Positions 1,391 to 9,706 of a DNA stretch of 11,516 nt are shown here, piece after piece. The stretch lies in assembly GCA_036444275.1 (NCBI GenBank), contig JAZGAD010000054.1, positions 1 to 11,516 of the forward strand. The letters run 5' to 3'. Within the stretch, counting starts at the first letter, position 1. Each line of letters starts with the position of its first letter. This DNA is from Candidatus Hydrothermarchaeales archaeon (GTDB lineage: Archaea; Hydrothermarchaeota; Hydrothermarchaeia; Hydrothermarchaeales; JAZGAD01). Under the pieces are notes generated by a model that made no database searches, was not told where the DNA came from, and was given only the letters and a program-made list of their open reading frames with translations. The position numbers and the translations under genes are program-made.

Positions 1391-2344
1391 ATGTTCACAT
1401 CTGCAACGCCAGAGGAGAGGAAGATATACTACAACGAGGAATGGAGCAAAGAAGACATACCGGACTTCATCACTACAGCTATCGAAAATAGAGAGTTCGG
1501 TTTCGACCACGACGGCACAGGACCTAGCGACAGATACAACCAGATCTACAGCCTCGACCAACTGGAGAAGTTCCTAGAGTTGCGCTATCCCTACGCCGCT
1601 TACAGCAGCATCTCCTTCTACGAAAGACCCCACAACAGGGAGGGTTGGCTCAACGCAGAGCTCGTCTTCGACATAGACGCGAAGGACCTGCCCATGAGGC
1701 GCTGCACCTGCGAGGCTGGAAACGTATGCAGCACTTGCTTGGAGGATGCAAAGGAATTCCTCTTCCTGATTACAGATGCATTAGAGGGAGACCTCGGCGT
1801 AAAAGAGATAAGATACGTCTACTCGGGCAGAGGCTACCATGTTCGAATATTTGACGAAGACCTAATGTGTATTGGAAGCACTGAGCGAGGCTATATACTC
1901 GACTATATAAGCGGTAGCGTCATACCCAACGACGATCGCTTGAAACTGAAGAGGGGCTATCCCAAGGTCTTCAAGGATAGACTGCTCAAGTTCCTAGAGC
2001 TTGCCGACGAGAAGAAGTTGAAGGAAATATCGAGCATAGGGGCTAAAAAAGCTGGTGAGATAATAAAGGCGAAGAGGAGGATAGCGAACGAGGTGGAGGA
2101 GGGGAATTTCAAGACTTTGGAGGGGATACTGAAGCAGGAGAGCTATACCAAGTTCATGGAGTATCTGAGAAGTATCAATGCTTCAATGCTCGATGGCAAG
2201 GTGACAGTGGATGTTAAACGCATTCTACGCCTGCCGTCGTCGCTTCACTCAGCTGTGAGCATGAAATGCATGGTGGTAAAAAACTTAGAGAAATTCGATC
2301 CATTTAAGGACGCGGTACCAAAGTTTGTAGGGGAAAGGCAGTAG
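1391..2344 (+). CDS. priS: DNA primase small (catalytic) subunit PriS
   Basis: REFGFD, ELVFDIDAKD (DxD), YSGRGYH, DGKVTVDVKRILRLPSSLH, and a CxC...CxxC Zn site; 317 aa. Confidence 0.96.
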   Translation: MFTSATPEERKIYYNEEWSKEDIPDFITTAIENREFGFDHDGTGPSDRYNQIYSLDQLEKFLELRYPYAAYSSISFYERPHNREGWLNAELVFDIDAKDLPMRRCTCEAGNVCSTCLEDAKEFLFLITDALEGDLGVKEIRYVYSGRGYHVRIFDEDLMCIGSTERGYILDYISGSVIPNDDRLKLKRGYPKVFKDRLLKFLELADEKKLKEISSIGAKKAGEIIKAKRRIANEVEEGNFKTLEGILKQESYTKFMEYLRSINASMLDGKVTVDVKRILRLPSSLHSAVSMKCMVVKNLEKFDPFKDAVPKFVGERQ

Positions 2345-2355
2345 TAATAAGTACC

Positions 2356-2365
2356 TTTTTAATTT
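2356..2365 (+). terminator. Possible archaeal oligo-T terminator after priS
   Basis: TTTTTAATTT begins 12 bp after the priS stop. Confidence 0.35.
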
Positions 2366-2367
2366 GT
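2363..2367 (+). repeat. Left target-site duplication TTTGT
   Basis: Directly abuts the left TIR; identical to 7067-7071. Confidence 0.9.
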
Positions 2368-2387
2368 CAGTAGACCACAATGTAGAT
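2368..2387 (+). repeat. Left terminal inverted repeat CAGTAGACCACAATGTAGAT
   Basis: Exact reverse complement of 7047-7066. The CAGT terminus is typical of ISH3-family ends. Confidence 0.93.
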
Positions 2388-2396
2388 TTATGGTCC

Positions 2397-2594
2397 AAGG
2401 AATTCATGGAGCATTATCACAAGCGGAGCAACGTTGAAACAACCTTCCATATGCTCAAAATGAAATTTGGAGACAAGCTTAAATCCAAGAATCCAGTGGC
2501 ACAGGAGAATGAGTTATTGTGTAAGGTGATAGCTCATAACATAGTGGTCTTGATACATGAGATGCACGAGCTAGGTATAACACCTAGCTTCTAA
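2397..2594 (+). pseudogene. C-terminal fragment of a DDE transposase (IS5/IS4-like, DDE_Tnp_1-type)
   Basis: EFMEHYHKRSNVETTFHMLKMKFG...NELLCKVIAHNI carries the Y-x-x-R-x-x-x-E-x6-K signature around the catalytic Glu. Only ~65 aa remain. The listed ORF start at 2364 runs through the TSD/TIR and is not a real start. Left boundary is approximate. Confidence 0.85.
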
Positions 2595-3065
2595 TTTCTT
2601 TATTTTTTCTTTTGTTATAAAAGGTAAGGGTTCAGTCGTCTCTATAACATTCATTATTATTTCATAGTTCTCTATTTCAGTAGGTGGGATTATTAAAAAA
2701 GATATTGGTATTGTTTGGTCTTTCTCAAAGTCACACCATTTACTATTAGGAAAGGTTGGAGGGATATAAGGTAGAAGTTGATTAGTCTTTTTATCCTTTA
2801 GTCTCCATTCTATGTGTGCTCTCCCTTCTGCCCCATTGTTAGTAGCTGCGGTACTAACTCTATATTGAGTGGGTTCTTGCGGTATTTCAATATTAAAAAA
2901 CTGTTCTTTTAATTTTTCAATTGTACTAGGTGGAGGTGGTTCAATTTTCTCGTGGCTAATGACACCAAAAATTATGATAGGTGTTTTTGGACTACTATCC
3001 CAATCATAAACCCAGTATAAACCGCCAATTAACAGAACAATTACTATTATTGAACTTTTTTTCAT
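2571..3065 (-). CDS. Hypothetical membrane-anchored/secreted protein (164 aa)
   Basis: MKKSSIIVIVLLIGGLYWVY signal anchor, PPPP linker, then a beta-rich Ig/CARDB-like region (VSTAATNNGAEG). ATG start. Overlaps the convergent transposase fragment by 24 bp. Confidence 0.7.
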   Translation of the reverse strand: MKKSSIIVIVLLIGGLYWVYDWDSSPKTPIIIFGVISHEKIEPPPPSTIEKLKEQFFNIEIPQEPTQYRVSTAATNNGAEGRAHIEWRLKDKKTNQLLPYIPPTFPNSKWCDFEKDQTIPISFLIIPPTEIENYEIIMNVIETTEPLPFITKEKIKKLEARCYT

Positions 3066-3088
3066 TGTTTTTAATAAAAGAATACAAT

Positions 3089-3146
3089 TGCTAATAAAGT
3101 CTAGCTTCTGCTAATAAAGTCTGCTAATTAAGTGACTAAATTAGCA
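3089..3146. repeat. Cluster of TGCTAAT(A/T)AAGT direct repeats plus a 25-bp near-palindrome
   Basis: TGCTAATAAAGTCT at 3089-3102 and 3109-3122; TGCTAATTAAGT at 3122-3133; TGCTAATTAAGT-G-ACTAAATTAGCA at 3122-3146 has 11 of 12 arm positions complementary. Confidence 0.85.
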
Positions 3147-3167
3147 AAGCCGAGACAATAGAAACTT

Positions 3168-3176
3168 GTTTATATA
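3168..3176 (+). promoter_or_regulatory. Putative TATA box for the 152-aa membrane gene
   Basis: TTTATATAA about 30-40 bp upstream of the ATG at 3208. Confidence 0.5.
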
Positions 3177-3192
3177 ATAACACTGTGGCTAG

Positions 3193-3651
3193 TTGTTAGG
3201 GAAAAGAATGGTAAATTTAGTCGTTCTCTTGATGGGAGCTGTAATAAGTATCGTATTATGTTTAATATGGCGTTGGCTTCGATATTCACAGATAGCACCT
3301 TCGATTACGTCAGATAAAAAGCTAACAAGAATGGGTCTAAGAGGACCTGCCTCTGTAGAGCATTATCATTGGGGGATACTCTTTGGGTTATCTGGATTTT
3401 TCCTCACCTATTATTGTCATCTTGCCCTAGATTCGTTATTTTGGATTGGTTTGGGGGTAATACTGATTCTTTCGGAATTTGCTCAAGAGAATCCTTTCGG
3501 TGCTGGAAAAGATCATTTTCAAACAACTAATATGATTACTGTTGTTCTGGTTGTGGTATTAATTTTAGCTTGGTTCTTCGGGCATGAAATTCTCTGTGCA
3601 AACTATATGGTGCGATTTTCTAGATTGAGTTTCATACTGGCATCAATATGA
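3193..3651 (+). CDS. Hypothetical integral membrane protein (~4 TM)
   Basis: Four hydrophobic segments; EHYHWGILFG and SEFAQENPFGAGKDHF motifs. ATG at 3208 is an alternative start to TTG at 3193. Confidence 0.7.
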   Translation: MLGKRMVNLVVLLMGAVISIVLCLIWRWLRYSQIAPSITSDKKLTRMGLRGPASVEHYHWGILFGLSGFFLTYYCHLALDSLFWIGLGVILILSEFAQENPFGAGKDHFQTTNMITVVLVVVLILAWFFGHEILCANYMVRFSRLSFILASI

Positions 3652-3659
3652 GAATCGTC

Positions 3660-3668
3660 TTTTAAATA
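3660..3668 (+). promoter_or_regulatory. Putative TATA box for the AlbA_2 gene (leaderless-type spacing)
   Basis: TTTTAAATA 21-29 bp upstream of the ATG at 3689. Confidence 0.5.
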
Positions 3669-3688
3669 ATCGTTAAAAAGAAATTAAG

Positions 3689-5047
3689 ATGGAGGGAAAG
3701 ATAGTGTACAATCCGTTTGATAAAAAAATTGATGATTTAGAATTCGATGACCTAAGGAAGTTGATTGAGGAAGAGGTCAAAGAGGGTTTTTACATCGAAT
3801 ATAAAACCGATTTTCAAAAGAATCAGAAAATTGCAAAATCAATTGCTTCTTTTGCAAATACTCATGGTGGGTGGTATTTTATCGGAGTCGAAGATCATGA
3901 AGATACAAATATTGCGAAGGAGTTAGTTGGATTTGGCATCAAAAAGAATAAACAACCACAAGAGAAGATTCGAGACATTGCTAAAGAACACATTCATCCC
4001 CTTCCTATTTTCCACATGAAATTAATTAAGTTCAAAAGAGATAGAGGGATCTTAGTAGTTTTTATTCCTGAGAGTTTTGAAACACCACATGTATTAAGTA
4101 ATGGAGTTATTTATCGGAGGAATGGAGAGCAATCCAGTCCAATACGAGAAACAGATAGATATGCATTGGATAAACTTTATCAGAAATCATTTAATTTTAA
4201 AGAAAGGGTTCTAAAGTTTTGTAAAGATCCCTTTGGGATTACTACCGGGGAAAGTGAAATTAGCCTTCCTTTCCTTAAAATGTATTTCGTGCCAAAGTGG
4301 TTTGATGATATCCATATAGATACTTTTTTCTCCGATGAATATTTAGAAGAAATAAAAGCTTTGATAAATCAAGAAGAAACTCTTTTCGAGTCGCATAAAG
4401 AAGTAGGGACATTTTCACTGACCTTTGAAAATATTACACGTGGTACTCATTCGATTATTTTCAGAGACATTTCTAGGAATGTTGGATTCTCAAACTTTAC
4501 TATCGAATTCTTCAATAATGGGTCCACTAAAATTAGGATACCAATTTCTTTCACTACTGGAATTAATCCTAAATACCAAACTGATCTTGATGATGAATAC
4601 CTTAATCGAATATATGATGAAATCGGTGATGAGATTGAGTTTTTCAAATTAGTAAATATTTATGATTTATTTTTCACAATAAGGTATGCGATACAAAAGT
4701 ATCAAAAATTCTTCGAGAAAATTGAAACTGATTCTAAGATATTAATGGCAATTGAATTAGAAAATATTTATCGACTTATCCCATTTATACAAAATGAGGT
4801 TTACTTAGATTATTTAAAAAAATATCATGTTCCCGTATGTATGTATAAATCTACGAGAGTTCCAGATGTATACAAACCTGAACCTTGGATTGTATTTGAT
4901 AAATTCCAAGGAAAGGATTTTATCTGGATATTAGTTACCGTCCTTAATGGATTGGGCCTAAGTACAATCAAAATAGGAGAAAAAACCATAATGGATGGTT
5001 TTGGTGATTATATTATAGAACTAAGCAAAAAAAATAAATCACCATAA
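3689..5047 (+). CDS. AlbA_2/Schlafen-domain protein with uncharacterised C-terminal domain (452 aa)
   Basis: EGFYIEYK...IAKSIASFANTHGGWYFIGVED...LVVFIPES..PH...GVIYRRNGEQSSP matches the AlbA_2 (Schlafen core) pattern E-x4-EfK, FAN-x-x-GG-x3-GV-x-D. Intact ORF, very AT-rich. Confidence 0.9.
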   Translation: MEGKIVYNPFDKKIDDLEFDDLRKLIEEEVKEGFYIEYKTDFQKNQKIAKSIASFANTHGGWYFIGVEDHEDTNIAKELVGFGIKKNKQPQEKIRDIAKEHIHPLPIFHMKLIKFKRDRGILVVFIPESFETPHVLSNGVIYRRNGEQSSPIRETDRYALDKLYQKSFNFKERVLKFCKDPFGITTGESEISLPFLKMYFVPKWFDDIHIDTFFSDEYLEEIKALINQEETLFESHKEVGTFSLTFENITRGTHSIIFRDISRNVGFSNFTIEFFNNGSTKIRIPISFTTGINPKYQTDLDDEYLNRIYDEIGDEIEFFKLVNIYDLFFTIRYAIQKYQKFFEKIETDSKILMAIELENIYRLIPFIQNEVYLDYLKKYHVPVCMYKSTRVPDVYKPEPWIVFDKFQGKDFIWILVTVLNGLGLSTIKIGEKTIMDGFGDYIIELSKKNKSP

Positions 5048-5057
5048 ATGTCGTATA

Positions 5058-5064
5058 TTTTTTT
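5058..5064 (+). terminator. Possible oligo-T terminator of the AlbA_2 gene
   Basis: T7 run starting 11 bp after the stop, between convergent genes. Confidence 0.45.
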
Positions 5065-5600
5065 ATTTGATTTCAGAAGCAGACACCAAGTTCCACTTTT
5101 TGATATAATCCCCAGATTGCCTGTCTATCGTTCTCTGTGGCTCGATTTTAATCCACTTCCCACTGGACAAACCCCTATGAGTGAGATCAGAATAATATCT
5201 GTTAGGATATCCTCCAAGATCATCTAACCGAACTAAGACCATTGCATGGCCCTCCGCTTCACCACTTGCTTTGAAGAAGCCCACAGCCGACTCCACACCC
5301 GCCCTCTCAAACAAAGCCCCTGTGAGGATAGAATAGTCATCACAGTCACCACTCTTTAGGCTCAGTGTCTCAACAGGTGCTCTGAAGATATTGTTCAAGT
5401 CACTCTCATAGTGAACATTGGCATTCAACCACCCTAGTATTTTCTTTAGCTTACTTACTTCAGAGCTGGAATCTTGCACTCCAGCGAAGCCTAAGACCGC
5501 ATCCAACATATTTCTAGCTTCATAGTAGCAATATTTGTTCCCCGCCTCAGCGTGGTACAAGTCACATTCATCGTCCCATTCAAGCCCAGCGAAGTCATGG
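5063..5600 (-). pseudogene. Transglutaminase-like (papain-fold) protein, 5'-truncated but catalytic domain intact
   Basis: WLNANVHYESD...PVETL..KSGDCDDYSILTGALF...GHAMVLV...WIKIEP gives a Cys-His-Glu candidate triad. Beyond ~5600 the open frame is the antisense of the ISH3 transposase, so the native N-terminus appears lost. Boundary is approximate. Confidence 0.8.
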
Positions 5601-6467
5601 AGTTGTTTGACGAGATATTTGGGATGACTCATGGGATAGCCAGGGCACTGGGTGAACTCAAGAAGCCTGTTGACGTAGCTATCGATATTACTGATCAACT
5701 CTACTATGGAAATAAGAGTGATTCCATGGTGGGGGGGGGGGGACCAAGCCTCAGAGGGGTACTAGCTATGCCTTTAGGTTTGCTACCATAAACATAGTCG
5801 AGAAGGGGATGAGGTTCACCCTCTTAGCACTGCCAATAGGTGTTTTGACCTCTAAGAAGAAGGTCGTAAGAAGACTAATTGAGTATGCACAGTCAAAATC
5901 AAGACCATATACCTTGACAGAGGTTTCTTCACCACTGAGATCATTAACTTGTTGGACGAATTGAATGTGAAATTCTTGATGCCAGCCATCCAAAACAAGC
6001 GGATCAAGGCGTTAGCAGACCAACATCAATCCCCTACTGTTATAGAGTACAAACTGGGTGTTAGAAGGAAACGAAAGAGTGGCAGGACATGGTACAGGGA
6101 TGATGCCACTTGGTTCAACCTCGTGATCGTGACCAACGAAGACGGGATCAAAAGGACTTTTGCTACCAATCTAGAGGTCAAAGAGGAAGATGCATTCAGC
6201 TTGTTTGATTTTTATGAGAAGCGATGGGGTATAGAAACCAGTTATCGTGTTAAAAACGGTTTCAGGGTCAGGACGACATCCAAGAACTACGTTGTCCGGC
6301 TCTTCTACTTCCTGTTGTCAACCTGCTTGTATAATCTCTGGGTGCTTGCCAACATTGCCGTAGCCCTATTAGTATACGGCAAGATCTTGGGGAAGCCCTT
6401 GATTAGTGCAAAGGTCTTCGGTACTATCCTATGCACGGCTCGTTTCATGATAGATAACGGTGGATAA
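5590..6467 (+). pseudogene. ISH3-family DDE transposase, 5'-truncated with two frameshifts
   Basis: Three frames join: VDVAIDITDQLYYG (D1) up to G12 at 5731-5742; TKPQRGTSYAFRFATINIV...FTLLALP from 5743; IKTIYLDRGFF (D2) from 5898 through FATNL, YEKRWGIETSYR (E), RTTSKNYVVRLFYFLLS...YNLWVL. All are ISH3-type motifs. No N-terminal region is recognisable upstream of ~5590. Confidence 0.88.
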
Positions 6468-6480
6468 ATAGCTTCAGGAA

Positions 6481-6488
6481 TTTATATA
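6481..6488 (+). promoter_or_regulatory. Putative TATA box for the passenger gene
   Basis: TTTATATA 27-34 bp upstream of the ATG at 6515. Confidence 0.55.
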
Positions 6489-6514
6489 TTCTATAAGTTA
6501 TCTAGAGCCTGGTA

Positions 6515-6982
6515 ATGGTTGAACATACGTTTTCTTCGGAAGAAAGAATAAAGAATATCGAGAATTTTTTGTTTTTCGGAGTGATTTTAATCGTTTCTTT
6601 TATTTTCATTAGTGATGAAAGATTTGGACCAATAAGGGATATGGAGTTGTTAGGAGACGTTCTAACTTTATTTGCGTTGTTTCCACTTTTCTTTTCGTAC
6701 TTACTTACCTTCTTCTATTTTTATAAAATAAGTAAAAGTTCAGGTGAATCCACTGCGAATACCGTTATAAATTCGATAGTCTCTTTTGTCGAAAATAATA
6801 AGTCGTGGCTTAGCTATCCTGTCACCTTATTTTTGATTTTAATATTCGTATTCGTTGCAAAATCCTTTCCAGGTGTGGGGTGGGAACATATAATACCACC
6901 AATACTCGGTGCTACGTTGTTTTATGTTTTAAAGATGCATCCAAAAATACACGAGAGGTTCAACAATCTCCGATTCAAATAA
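6515..6982 (+). CDS. Hypothetical integral membrane protein (~4 TM), transposon passenger gene
   Basis: 155 aa with four hydrophobic segments; AT-rich; lies between the transposase stop and the right TIR. Confidence 0.7.
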   Translation: MVEHTFSSEERIKNIENFLFFGVILIVSFIFISDERFGPIRDMELLGDVLTLFALFPLFFSYLLTFFYFYKISKSSGESTANTVINSIVSFVENNKSWLSYPVTLFLILIFVFVAKSFPGVGWEHIIPPILGATLFYVLKMHPKIHERFNNLRFK

Positions 6983-7046
6983 TACCTTTAGGGGGATCAA
7001 GAACAATTAATTAATTCCAACATCTACATTATATAATACCAAAATC

Positions 7047-7066
7047 ATCTACATTGTGGTCTACTG
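7047..7066 (-). repeat. Right terminal inverted repeat (ATCTACATTGTGGTCTACTG on + strand)
   Basis: 20/20 reverse complement of 2368-2387. Confidence 0.93.
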
Positions 7067-7071
7067 TTTGT
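7067..7071 (+). repeat. Right target-site duplication TTTGT
   Basis: Directly abuts the right TIR; identical to 2363-2367. Confidence 0.9.
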
Positions 7072-7159: not shown

Positions 7160-7657
7160 ATGTTCATCTGCGATATATGCTTAAAAAACGAGATCCTCTG
7201 CCCAGGATGCGAGGATAAATTACAAAAGGGTGACATCACCGAGTTGGAGGTAGCACTCTCCAAGACACTTTACAAGCTAAGTGACACATTTCCGGGTTTA
7301 AGAGCTGTGGAGTTACTAAGGGTGATCGAAGCCGATGAACTCGTGATTGTTCTCACCAAGAAGGGACATGCTAGGAGACTGGTTGGGAAAGGAGGGCGGG
7401 TTATTAAGGAGATTACCAAAGAGATGGGCAGAAAGGTAAAGGCATTGGAAGAAGCTGGGGATAAGGAGCTGGTGGAGGCTCTTCTCTTCCCAGCGCGAGT
7501 ACTAAGGGTAAATATCCTGTATCTACCTGGAGAAGGTGAGAAATTCAAGGTTCTCGTACCGAAAGGGGACGCTTCAAAGCTGCTGACCAGCGTGACCGCG
7601 CTACAAGAAGCCCTAAGGGAGCTCACTGGAAAGAATATGGTCATAGCGTTCGAATAA
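7160..7657 (+). CDS. Archaeal NusA-like KH-domain protein with N-terminal Cys cluster
   Basis: ICDICLKNEILCPGC N-terminus, KH loop LVGKGGRVIK, and LLFPARVLRVN. This is the archaeal NusA-like paralog pattern. Confidence 0.8.
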   Translation: MFICDICLKNEILCPGCEDKLQKGDITELEVALSKTLYKLSDTFPGLRAVELLRVIEADELVIVLTKKGHARRLVGKGGRVIKEITKEMGRKVKALEEAGDKELVEALLFPARVLRVNILYLPGEGEKFKVLVPKGDASKLLTSVTALQEALRELTGKNMVIAFE

Positions 7658-7688: not shown

Positions 7689-8837
7689 ATGCAATTGAAA
7701 AGCTCTAGGCTCAAAGGCATGCGGATAGCGCACTGCGTCACTGGGAGCGTGGCAGCCATCGAGGCACCGAAGATAGCACGGGAACTCAAGAGGCATGGCG
7801 CGCAAGTCCAAGTATACATGAGTAGAGCGGCCCAAAAGATCATCCACCCCTACACCATGCAGTTCGCTGCAGAGACGGTTGTAACAAAGCTAACAGGTGG
7901 GATGGAACACCTGCGAGAATTCGATCTCGTATTGATAGCACCTGCTACAGCAACAACCATGAGCAAGATAGCAGTGGGCATAGCAGACAGCCCGGTAACA
8001 GCACTGGCACTAGCGTCAAGGGCTAAGATGGTAATTGCACCAGCTATGGCTATGAAGATGTACGAGAGCCGTGCCTTAAAAGAGAATATTGAAAAACTTA
8101 AGGCGAGGGGATGTGTCTTTGTAGAGCCTAAATTCGAGGAGGGAAAGGCAAAGCTTGCACAGCTAGATGAGGTGGTAGACGCAGTTATCGCCGGACTTGT
8201 AGAGAAAAACTTAGCAGGTATGAAGGTGGTGGTAACAGCAGGCCCGACCATAGAATACATAGACCCTCTTAGGATAATCACCAATAAGAGTTCAGGCATG
8301 ATGGGCATAGAATTAGCGAAGGAGGCTTACCGCAGGGGGGCAGAGGTAAAGCTCATCTACGCCCCCGGATGTATCGAAGTACCTCGCTATTTGGATGTTG
8401 CTAGGGTTGAGACCTCTGCGGAGATGCTCTCACAAGTAAAAAAAAGTAAGTGCGACGTCTTCGTGTTTGCTGCTGCAGTCGCGGATTTCAGCCCGAAGAA
8501 AGCTAGGGAGAAGATAGACTCTAAAAAAGGCTGTATCGAACTCAATTTGTATCCTACGCCCAAGATCATCGATGAAGTGCAGGATTCAAAGGCAGTAAGA
8601 GTAGCCTTCAAGGCCCTGCATAATGCTTCAGGAAAGGAGTTAAAAACAGCTGCCAAGAATGCACTAGCGGAATATCATGTCGACATAGCTGTGGCAAACG
8701 ATGCATCAAAGGTGATGGGGGCTGAAGATAGCGAGGTCTATATCGCGACTGAGAAGAGCGTTGAGCATGTGCCTCTTGTCTCCAAGGCAGAGGTGGCCAA
8801 GCGCATCTGGGATACCGTTAAGGAATTAAAAAAATGA
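7689..8837 (+). CDS. coaBC: Bifunctional phosphopantothenoylcysteine decarboxylase / phosphopantothenate-cysteine ligase (Dfp)
   Basis: VTGSVAA, MEH, APATATTMSKIAVGIAD, PAM, EEGKAK; then VVVTAGPTIEYIDPLRIITNKSSG.MG, AAAVADF, KI, VAND. Confidence 0.96.
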   Translation: MQLKSSRLKGMRIAHCVTGSVAAIEAPKIARELKRHGAQVQVYMSRAAQKIIHPYTMQFAAETVVTKLTGGMEHLREFDLVLIAPATATTMSKIAVGIADSPVTALALASRAKMVIAPAMAMKMYESRALKENIEKLKARGCVFVEPKFEEGKAKLAQLDEVVDAVIAGLVEKNLAGMKVVVTAGPTIEYIDPLRIITNKSSGMMGIELAKEAYRRGAEVKLIYAPGCIEVPRYLDVARVETSAEMLSQVKKSKCDVFVFAAAVADFSPKKAREKIDSKKGCIELNLYPTPKIIDEVQDSKAVRVAFKALHNASGKELKTAAKNALAEYHVDIAVANDASKVMGAEDSEVYIATEKSVEHVPLVSKAEVAKRIWDTVKELKK

Positions 8838-9706
8838 GGGCCAGTGCTTTCGTACCAGGGCACATAACAGGCTTCTTCAAGCCGGTGAAGCACCGGGAAT
8901 ACCTAAGATACGGCTCCATAGGCTGTGGAGTTGTGATAAGCAAGGGCGTATACACCAATGTCCGTGTGAGAGAAGCCGAGAAGAACGCTCTCCACATTTT
9001 CATCGATGGAGAGGAGAAAACATGCCCAGTCACAGAGGCGGTAGCGAGGGATGTCCTGAAACTGGCAGACGGCAGGTATAAAGCAGAGATATTCCACGAG
9101 GTAGATATACCCATAAGTCAGGGCTTCGGGAGCAGTGCAGCTGGAGCATTGGGCACTGCTTTATGCCTCAGCAAGGCACTGCAGCTCCCTTTGACCCTTA
9201 ATCACTGCGGCGGGATCGCTCATCGAGCAGAGGTGAGGAACAAGACAGGGTTAGGGGATGTCATAGCAGAGTACTACGGCGGCTTAGTCGTGAGGCTAGC
9301 GCCCGGGGCACCAGGAATAGGAGTGATAGATAAAATCCCCTGTGAGGACTACGTTGTGGCTTGGGTGGTTGGGGAGCCGCTGGACACTAAAACAATCCTG
9401 CTGAACAAGAAGAAAAGCAAGAGGATCAGCTCGATGGCTGAGAAGTCCATGGAGTCTTTGTTTAGGTACCCCAACCCAGAGAACTTCCTTCAAGCATCGA
9501 GAAGGTTTGCCTTGGATTCACAGCTCATGAGCAAAGAGGTATACTCAGCCGTAAAGATTTTAGAGGAGAAGAACATACCTGCAAGTATGGTAATGCTTGG
9601 CAACTCAGTATTTACTCTCACCAGAGATCCAGAACGAGTAGAGCATGCTCTGGATTGCCCGAGCATTGTGGCTGAGATAGATTCCTTGGGAGCGAGGACA
9701 GTATGA
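8834..9706 (+). CDS. pok: Pantoate kinase (GHMP kinase family, PoK)
   Basis: AFVPGHITGFF, GSIGCG, PISQGFGSSAAGALG (GHMP loop), AHRAEV...TGLGDV, SMVMLGNSVF. ATGA overlap with coaBC. Confidence 0.93.
   Translation: MRASAFVPGHITGFFKPVKHREYLRYGSIGCGVVISKGVYTNVRVREAEKNALHIFIDGEEKTCPVTEAVARDVLKLADGRYKAEIFHEVDIPISQGFGSSAAGALGTALCLSKALQLPLTLNHCGGIAHRAEVRNKTGLGDVIAEYYGGLVVRLAPGAPGIGVIDKIPCEDYVVAWVVGEPLDTKTILLNKKKSKRISSMAEKSMESLFRYPNPENFLQASRRFALDSQLMSKEVYSAVKILEEKNIPASMVMLGNSVFTLTRDPERVEHALDCPSIVAEIDSLGARTV

Follow-up and report, generated by a model that had tools for sequence, protein, structure and literature searches.

An ISH3-like element between two host genes

The window analysed here, an 11,516-bp stretch, is the whole of one contig (C54; JAZGAD010000054.1) of a metagenome-assembled genome (MAG) of a Candidatus Hydrothermarchaeales archaeon, which comprises 61 contigs and 1.49 Mb and is 81% complete. 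Between a primase gene and a KH-domain gene it holds an element of 4,699 bp (2368-7066), in which the remnant of an ISH3-like transposase gene is preceded by a block of foreign genes. The element is bounded by perfect 20-nt inverted repeats and flanked on both sides by a 5-bp target-site duplication (TSD; Table 1), and its end sequence matched contig C54 at two places only, both of them outer ends. The perfect ends and the duplication show that the element was inserted as one unit between the primase and KH genes.

The right-hand part of the element encodes the transposase remnant. Full-length relatives of this protein are 374-400 aa long, so that about 105 N-terminal codons are missing in the window copy, and the remaining frames are separated by two frameshifts, one at a run of 12 G (5731-5742) and one near an A-run (5895-5899). 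At the G run the relatives read M-V-V-G-T-K; the run may be either a genuine lengthening of the homopolymer or an error of sequencing or assembly. The motif Y-(2)-R-(3)-E-(3)-R is kept as YEKRWGIETSYR in the open reading frame (ORF) at 5949-6467. The closest proteins to the window transposase are 55-61% identical, with 61% for the best full-length one, and the best NCBIfam match is ISH3, with 78.5 bits for a 172-aa piece and 171 bits for a full-length relative (P0001), the curated cut-off being 225. An earlier sequence-only reading of this stretch had expected removal of the foreign block to yield a transposase frame of ~290 codons; such a frame is not open, the frame from 5552 stopping at 5791 and the gene running through three frames. 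From the transposase stop to the right end the window has 599 nt, compared with 88-285 nt in the relatives described below (from ORF and element coordinates), and this tail contains a further ORF of 155 aa. The sequence AATGTAGATG occurs twice in the right end (7034-7066), once in the terminal repeat and once 26 nt further in; the left end holds a single copy, and part of the left subterminal site may therefore have been lost.

Between the left end and the transposase remnant lies the foreign block, with a fragment of an IS5-like transposase gene at its left edge, three ORFs in the middle and a truncated transglutaminase-like gene at its right edge. The largest of the three ORFs encodes a protein with a Schlafen/AlbA_2 domain, whose relatives carry the database name 'ATP-binding protein' and whose best relative among 5.8 billion proteins is 64% identical. 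Homologues of the transglutaminase-like protein are 292-361 aa long and match only residues ~33-211 of the minus-strand ORF 5063-5698. None of the five cargo proteins matched the PADLOC library of defence systems. The block is compositionally mosaic, as its GC content at third codon positions (GC3) is 0.54 in the IS5-like piece, 0.24-0.30 in the middle 2.45 kb and 0.48 in the transglutaminase piece, and because GC3 differs in this way along the block, several separate events may have assembled it. The steps in overall GC content inside the element coincide with gene borders and are sharp at about 2600, 5050 and 6470.

Table 1 Features of the window and end-like features on two metagenome contigs (positions refer to the window unless a contig is named).
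Feature	Position	Strand	Remarks
Primase small-subunit gene, archaeal/eukaryotic type	1391-2344		Pfam PF01896
Left TSD copy	2363-2367		TTTGT; same pentamer at 7067-7071
Left terminal inverted repeat, CAGTAGACCACAATGTAGAT	2368-2387	+	begins CAGT; 20 nt, 100% complementary to right end
IS5-like DDE transposase, C-terminal ~66 codons	2394-2594	+	about 340 codons missing; Pfam, NCBIfam, homologues
GC content 0.40	2394-2594		
Junction repeat copy 1, CCAAGGAATTCATGGAG	2395-2411	+	in IS5-like fragment, reads S-K-E-F-M-E (conserved in relatives)
164-aa ORF	2571-3065	-	no family; GC3 0.24
GC content 0.30-0.38	2571-5047		ORFs and spacer
147-aa ORF	3208-3651	+	no family; hydrophobic by eye; GC3 0.30
452-aa protein, Schlafen/AlbA_2 domain	3689-5047	+	Pfam PF04326, E 9e-19; GC3 0.27
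Transglutaminase-like gene, C-terminal ~178 residues	5063-5602	-	about 115-185 N-terminal codons missing; Pfam PF04473/PF01841
GC content 0.44-0.48	5063-6467		
ISH3-like transposase remnant	about 5579-6467	+	residues ~107-400 of full-length relatives, in three frames
Junction repeat copy 2, CCAGCGAAGTCATGGAG	5586-5602	+	where transglutaminase (-) and transposase (+) homologies overlap
GC content 0.30-0.33	6468-7066		
155-aa ORF	6515-6982	+	between transposase stop and right end; hydrophobic by eye; GC3 0.35
Right terminal inverted repeat	7047-7066	-	CAGTAG... when reverse-complemented
Right TSD copy	7067-7071		TTTGT
KH-domain gene	7160-7657		adjoins element on right
End-like and 5S features	L015:1-432 and 477-593; L011:1616-1635		

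The host genes have a GC content of 48-49%, and the contig also carries a coaBC-like gene, identified by reading its product. At the comparison loci coaBC adjoins the KH gene in eight out of nine, and no primase gene was found within the ~1,000-1,500 nt upstream of the KH gene (L117, which offers no upstream DNA, was left out). Scans of the window for transfer RNAs and Rfam families gave no match.

Large relatives with exchangeable cargo

We examined 80 genome loci encoding relatives of the right-hand transposase, and in 16 of them a right end that differs from the window's own at no more than 5 positions lies 80-540 nt downstream of the transposase gene. Since these matching ends stand beside ISH3-like genes, the ends of the window element belong to its ISH3-like gene and not to the IS5-like fragment. 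Left ends were sought within 3 kb and then by pattern search in the whole genomes, which brought both ends onto one contig at ten of the 16 loci, while the other six showed no partner end on the same contig. A de novo search for inverted repeats at the 80 loci (blastn-short) gave mostly AT-rich noise, in which only L028 and L095 were convincing.

One of these ten two-ended relatives is a canonical insertion sequence (IS) of 1,252 bp in Methanoperedens (L095), and the other nine measure 3,969 bp (L028), 6,622 bp (L044), 6,752 bp (L020), 6,796 bp (L053), 7,138 bp (L029/L128), 7,226 bp (L019), 9,139 bp (L023), 13,056 bp (L031) and 19,012 bp (L050). A 5-bp TSD was verified in nine of the ten (TTGAA, TCTTT, TAAAA, ATACA, AACAC, CTTAA, TTACA, ATAAA and TCCTC), among them eight of the nine large elements; the tenth begins at base 2 of its contig, with the left TSD flank outside the sequence. 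In all nine large elements, which have CAGTAG ends like the window element, the transposase adjoins the right end and the cargo is placed between the transposase and the left end, always in this position, although the cargoes, of 2.5-17 kb, are mutually unrelated. Judging from these layouts, cargo directly inside the left end appears to be the normal state of the ISH3-related family. The transposase forms a single ORF of 383-537 aa in eight of the nine cargo-bearing relatives and is split in the ninth (L172). In this 13,056-bp element it is spread over at least three ORFs while the ends and the duplication are intact, and among the passengers is a 397-aa DUF553 transglutaminase-like protein, so that this domain occurs as cargo for a second time.

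Closely related members of the family share their ends and cores while differing entirely in what they carry. L028 and L128 have in common a left end of 18-20 nt and a 1.8-kb core at 78% identity, which holds an ORF of 80-85 aa (84% identical between the two). In L169, L170 and L172 the shared parts are likewise a left end (46-58 nt) and a core (2.0 kb, 81% identity), with 4.7-11 kb of unrelated DNA in between. In L169-L172 a subterminal palindrome (GTTGATGG..CC/GTCAAC) is conserved straight after the 20-nt end on the left side and absent on the right, and nearly all cargo genes have the orientation of the small core ORF and follow it one after another in the direction of the left end, resembling a core-driven operon. 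Across 11 elements, 68 of 96 ORFs have no counterpart in another element, and the only widely recurring ones are the transposase, present in all 11, and the small ORF, which blastp found in 5. The cargo borders of the relatives showed no direct repeats beyond AT-rich 4-5-mers. As closely related cores carry wholly different cargo at the same borders, the question of how cargo is loaded becomes directly testable. Compared with these relatives, what is abnormal in the window copy is the loss of ~105 N-terminal transposase codons and of any small core ORF; a search across the rest of the window found neither the missing N-terminus nor the small ORF.

By Pfam, the cargo of the relatives includes C5 and N6/N4 DNA methylases, an MjaI-type restriction enzyme, a type III restriction helicase, Vsr, a HerA-type ATPase, a 1,501-aa DUF4011/AAA_11/AAA_12 protein with a nuclease domain, a PD-(D/E)XK nuclease, a reverse transcriptase, an EVE domain, MazE- and VapB-type antitoxin domains, a nucleotidyltransferase and the DUF553 transglutaminase-like protein, next to asparagine synthase, a pyridoxal-phosphate (PLP) enzyme, an aminotransferase and glycosyltransferases. 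The cargo consists mostly of restriction-modification and other defence genes, methylases paired with restriction enzymes and parts of toxin-antitoxin systems among them.

De Palmenaer, Siguier and Mahillon (2008; PMC2266710) describe the ISH3 family as elements of 1,225-1,500 bp with the transposase as their only gene, CRGT ends, a 4-5 bp duplication and the motif Y-(2)-R-(3)-E-(3)-R. The window element agrees with this description in its CAGT ends, its 5-bp duplication and its motif; it differs in its length, its four passenger ORFs and its two gene fragments, and the relatives differ in reaching 19 kb and up to about 20 passenger ORFs. A further difference is that even a full-length relative fails to reach the curated NCBIfam score.

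Transporter IS and unit transposons of bacteria carry passenger genes within one pair of ends. The window element and its relatives share with them the single end pair, the one target duplication, the passenger genes, the one transposase module and, in their variable cargo, the frequent defence systems; the differences are that the system described here is archaeal and ISH3-like and that the window copy has no functional transposase, owing to the missing codons and the two frameshifts. According to a 2019 survey (PMC6563490), transposons with passenger genes were not detected in archaea, and a 2025 preprint describes archaeal Tn7-like elements with presumed defence cargo, which belong to a different transposition system. 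The sequence-only reading was aware of no description of such capture for archaeal ISH3 elements, and our literature search agrees: in full-text literature outside subscription journals we found no account of such capture and no description of ISH3-type elements with passenger genes. Large transposons with defence cargo are therefore apparently new for the ISH3-like transposase family.

The ISH3-related family itself is the more interesting result than the window copy. Nine of the ten two-ended relatives, at 3.9-19 kb, contrast with the plain 1.2-1.5-kb elements by which ISH3 has been described, and the relatives point to a simple vehicle that moves defence genes among small-genome archaea. 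The window copy is a dead member of this family, yet it is the only one in which what may be a capture junction is still legible.

The two junctions and their shared repeat

At the left junction, Pfam DDE_Tnp_1 matches the ORF at 2364-2594 only with profile positions 150-200 of 200, IS5 is the best NCBIfam family for the fragment (E 3e-11), and a 407-aa relative from another archaeal genome aligns to it from residue 9-12. With relatives aligning from residue 11-12, homology to IS5-like transposases thus begins at nt 2394-2397, 7-10 nt inside the 20-nt left end, and the observation in the sequence-only reading that an unrelated DDE transposase starts mid-gene just inside the left repeat is borne out. 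Remnants of the same IS5-like family occur elsewhere in the host MAG (C33:59368-59484 and C19:17883-18014; 117-132 nt, 73-79% protein identity, and 85% and 75% DNA identity to the window piece) and in genomes of the same order. Those of C33, C19, L100 and L103 are short 3'-terminal remnants of the transposase gene, and in C19, L100 and L103 they adjoin a small Gly/Lys-rich ORF, as if an old remnant had been kept at one locus across the order.

At the right junction, the minus strand still reads as transglutaminase at an invariant W (5576-5578) and a near-invariant H-D (5594-5599), while on the plus strand homology to the transposase sets in at 5579-5594 for four of six queries and at 5570 and 5516 for the other two. 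Several transposase relatives align from an F at 5579 (F-x-P-x-E-[VL]) and others from 5588-5594; the alignments reaching 5570 and 5516 we attribute to chance extension, given the strong homology to transglutaminases at those positions. Judged by these homologies, which overlap by up to 24 nt, the right breakpoint lies within 5576-5602, and it is here that a transglutaminase-like gene on the minus strand meets the ISH3-like transposase on the plus strand mid-gene, as had been proposed.

The sequence-only reading had also noticed that the two junctions share a repeat, and the two 17-mers, CCAAGGAATTCATGGAG and CCAGCGAAGTCATGGAG, are indeed identical at 14 of 17 positions (82%), with an exact match over TCATGGAG. 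They sit at the inner edge of each junction, and the second copy reads P-S-E-V-M-E as transposase and L-H-D-F as transglutaminase on the other strand. In a test with random pairs of 36- and 41-nt windows, drawn within the element or genome-wide, a 14/17 match was reached by 4 of about 4000 pairs within the element, 2 of which also share an 8-mer, and by 8 of 6000 genome-wide, whereas an exact 8-mer alone was common (97 of about 4000 pairs). A 14/17 match hence arises in about 1 in 750-1000 random window pairs, without correction for the choice of measure made in the sequence-only reading; with that freedom of choice allowed for, we put the chance probability at roughly 0.003-0.01, and the repeat is unlikely to be due to chance.

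Neither a donor nor a sister copy came to light. In the host MAG, blastn and tblastn found no second copy of the element, and no intact transposase of this kind was found there either; 60 related genomes gave weak matches only. Close relatives of the cargo were absent from 38 genomes of the host phylum, 401 DPANN genomes, viral contigs and plasmids, and the donor locus that the sequence-only reading had envisaged, with full-length edge genes around the same three ORFs, was not found in any of the genomes, proteins, viral contigs or plasmids searched. Nor did the searches find an intact sister IS, to which that reading had proposed to align the element, or a block-free sister copy.

Origin of the element

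The simplest reading is stepwise decay, in which the window element would be a non-autonomous member of the cargo-carrying ISH3-related family of archaea, and we give this reading a probability of about one half. Its ancestor would have carried low-GC cargo, into which an IS5-like element of the family with remnants elsewhere in the host MAG and in related genomes would have landed. One deletion would then have started 7 nt inside the left end and stopped within the IS5-like gene, and a second would have reached from the 5' part of the transglutaminase gene to about transposase codon 107, probably joining the two at a short stretch of matching sequence. The two frameshifts in the transposase would have come later, and the element would no longer be self-mobile; the likeness of the junction 17-mers would be a coincidence, or would reflect only the match used at the right junction. 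The relatives favour this reading. As their cargo normally lies inside the left end, the left junction needs no special link to the right junction, and as the transposase is intact in eight of the nine cargo-bearing relatives, carrying cargo does not require that its 5' end be replaced, so that the truncation in the window may be a later deletion. L172 provides a precedent for a broken transposase with intact ends and duplication. Also in favour of decay are the ISH3-type ends, duplication and motif, the truncated and doubly frameshifted transposase, the mosaic composition, the IS5-like remnants elsewhere in the MAG and in related genomes, and the failure to find a second copy or an intact transposase of this kind in the MAG.

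Several observations weigh against stepwise decay. It does not predict the 14/17 match between the junctions, which is rare in random pairs; the searches described above yielded no sister that combines the same cargo with an intact core, and both deletions are inferred. The cargo-bearing relatives are only 50-55% identical to the window transposase over the C-terminal 172 aa, their ends differ from those of the window at 4-5 of 20 positions, and they may not speak for the architecture of the window's own subfamily (the proteins at 55-61% identity). Moreover, the cargo of L169-L172, the best-conserved relatives, is co-oriented with the small core ORF, while that of the window is not and no trace of the small ORF is present.

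Possible, although in our judgement somewhat less probable than decay, is a capture guided by microhomology at a single site. Here an element already truncated at its 5' side, in which the left end plus 7 nt was followed at transposase codon ~107 by ...CCAGCGAAGTCATGGAG TTGTTT..., would have gained 3.19 kb by two template switches: the nascent strand would have left the element, copied a donor from the transglutaminase match to the IS5-like match and re-entered the same site, so that the block came to lie between imperfect 17-mers. The repeat is predicted by one variant only, in which donor DNA is copied into one site of an element that has been truncated beforehand, and it stands exactly at the inner edge of both junctions, where it is rare by chance. 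The left copy can be read as IS5-like sequence and the right one both as transposase and, on the other strand, as transglutaminase, as expected if the match guided the switch, and both edge genes are cut mid-gene. This course of events needs a prior deletion derivative, of which none was seen, and our searches found neither a donor locus nor a block-free sister. The cargo borders of the relatives show only AT-rich 4-5-mers, and ectopic insertions of 3 kb by double template switching are, to our knowledge, rare in prokaryotes. Since the block is mosaic, this reading also requires a donor that was mosaic from the outset, and a mosaic genomic island could still have served as such. Of the capture of a foreign segment into an IS, as the sequence-only reading had it, there thus stand the element bounded by inverted ends, the broken ISH3-like transposase, the foreign DNA with truncated edge genes and a repeat unlikely by chance, while a donor and a sister are missing and the mosaic composition speaks against one contiguous segment.

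Extended to the whole family, this line of thought leads to a more speculative proposal, which we hold to be rather doubtful. ISH3-related archaeal elements would form an undescribed class of modular transposons with a left end of ~50 nt including the subterminal palindrome, a ~2-kb core at the right end (small ORF, transposase and right end) and 2-17 kb of exchangeable, mostly defence cargo. New cargo would enter just inside the left end through template switching, and the window copy would preserve one such capture, with its 14/17 microhomology at both junctions.

Pack-MULEs of plants, with which the sequence-only reading had compared the element, are non-autonomous and carry fragments of unrelated genes, and microhomology has been proposed at their capture junctions. 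The window element is likewise non-autonomous and has family-type ends, a target duplication and pieces of unrelated genes. It differs in that it is a single copy in an 81%-complete MAG, in that no donor genes and no evidence of mobilisation in trans were found, in that its cargo consists mostly of whole ORFs and not of fragments, and in that a transposase remnant is still present.

An origin as the remnant of a composite transposon, in which two ISH3-like copies flanked the cargo and inner deletions left only the outer left end and the 3' part of the right copy, is improbable. The outer ends are perfect and rightly oriented, and truncated edge genes would be expected if IS copies or deletions had cut them; the window, however, has one transposase remnant and two outer ends where a composite transposon has two flanking IS copies, and no internal end sequences occur on the contig. 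In addition, the presence of a left end only recurs in nine relatives, whose shared left end stops 18-58 nt in, which would be unexpected from independent deletions.

An assembly chimera, in which one or both junctions would be false joins to low-GC DNA from a different organism, is very improbable: the source is a metagenome-assembled genome with sharp GC steps and a 12-G run inside the transposase, but beyond the element the contig is host-like again and the 5-bp duplication matches, the changes in GC coincide with the borders of genes, homology is unbroken across the G run, the relatives have the same architecture, and nine proteins of the locus (primase, KH and all cargo) recur on a second public contig of 13,963 bp, which may not be an independent assembly, six of them being identical and three differing only in the called start codon.

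Sequences resembling the element end were also found beyond the window. A scan of metagenome contigs with the end sequence gave nine matches, most of them at chance level by a rough estimate and three inside long ORFs, and only L011, which has a transposase nearby, and L015 look related. L011 pairs an end with 1 mismatch with a transposase that is 42% identical. In L015 and L011, which come from one sample, a 5S rRNA gene, confirmed as 5S by Rfam in L015 and not in L011, is preceded at a distance of about 45-70 nt by an end-like sequence, and because L015 starts with the inner 9 nt of a left end, a miniature element of ~430 bp may sit there. In the host MAG, C23:4296-4613 codes for a homologue, at 50% identity, of the small core ORF (~80 aa) known from the DPANN transposons; a stretch of ~35% GC lies next to it, and neither a transposase nor a CAGTAG end pair was found near it. 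Contig C6 of the same MAG has two direct 20-mers like the element end (7816-7835 and 8859-8878, with 2 and 4 mismatches) at a spacing of 1,043 bp; between them lie genes for a helix-turn-helix protein and a membrane protein, as identified by reading the sequence.

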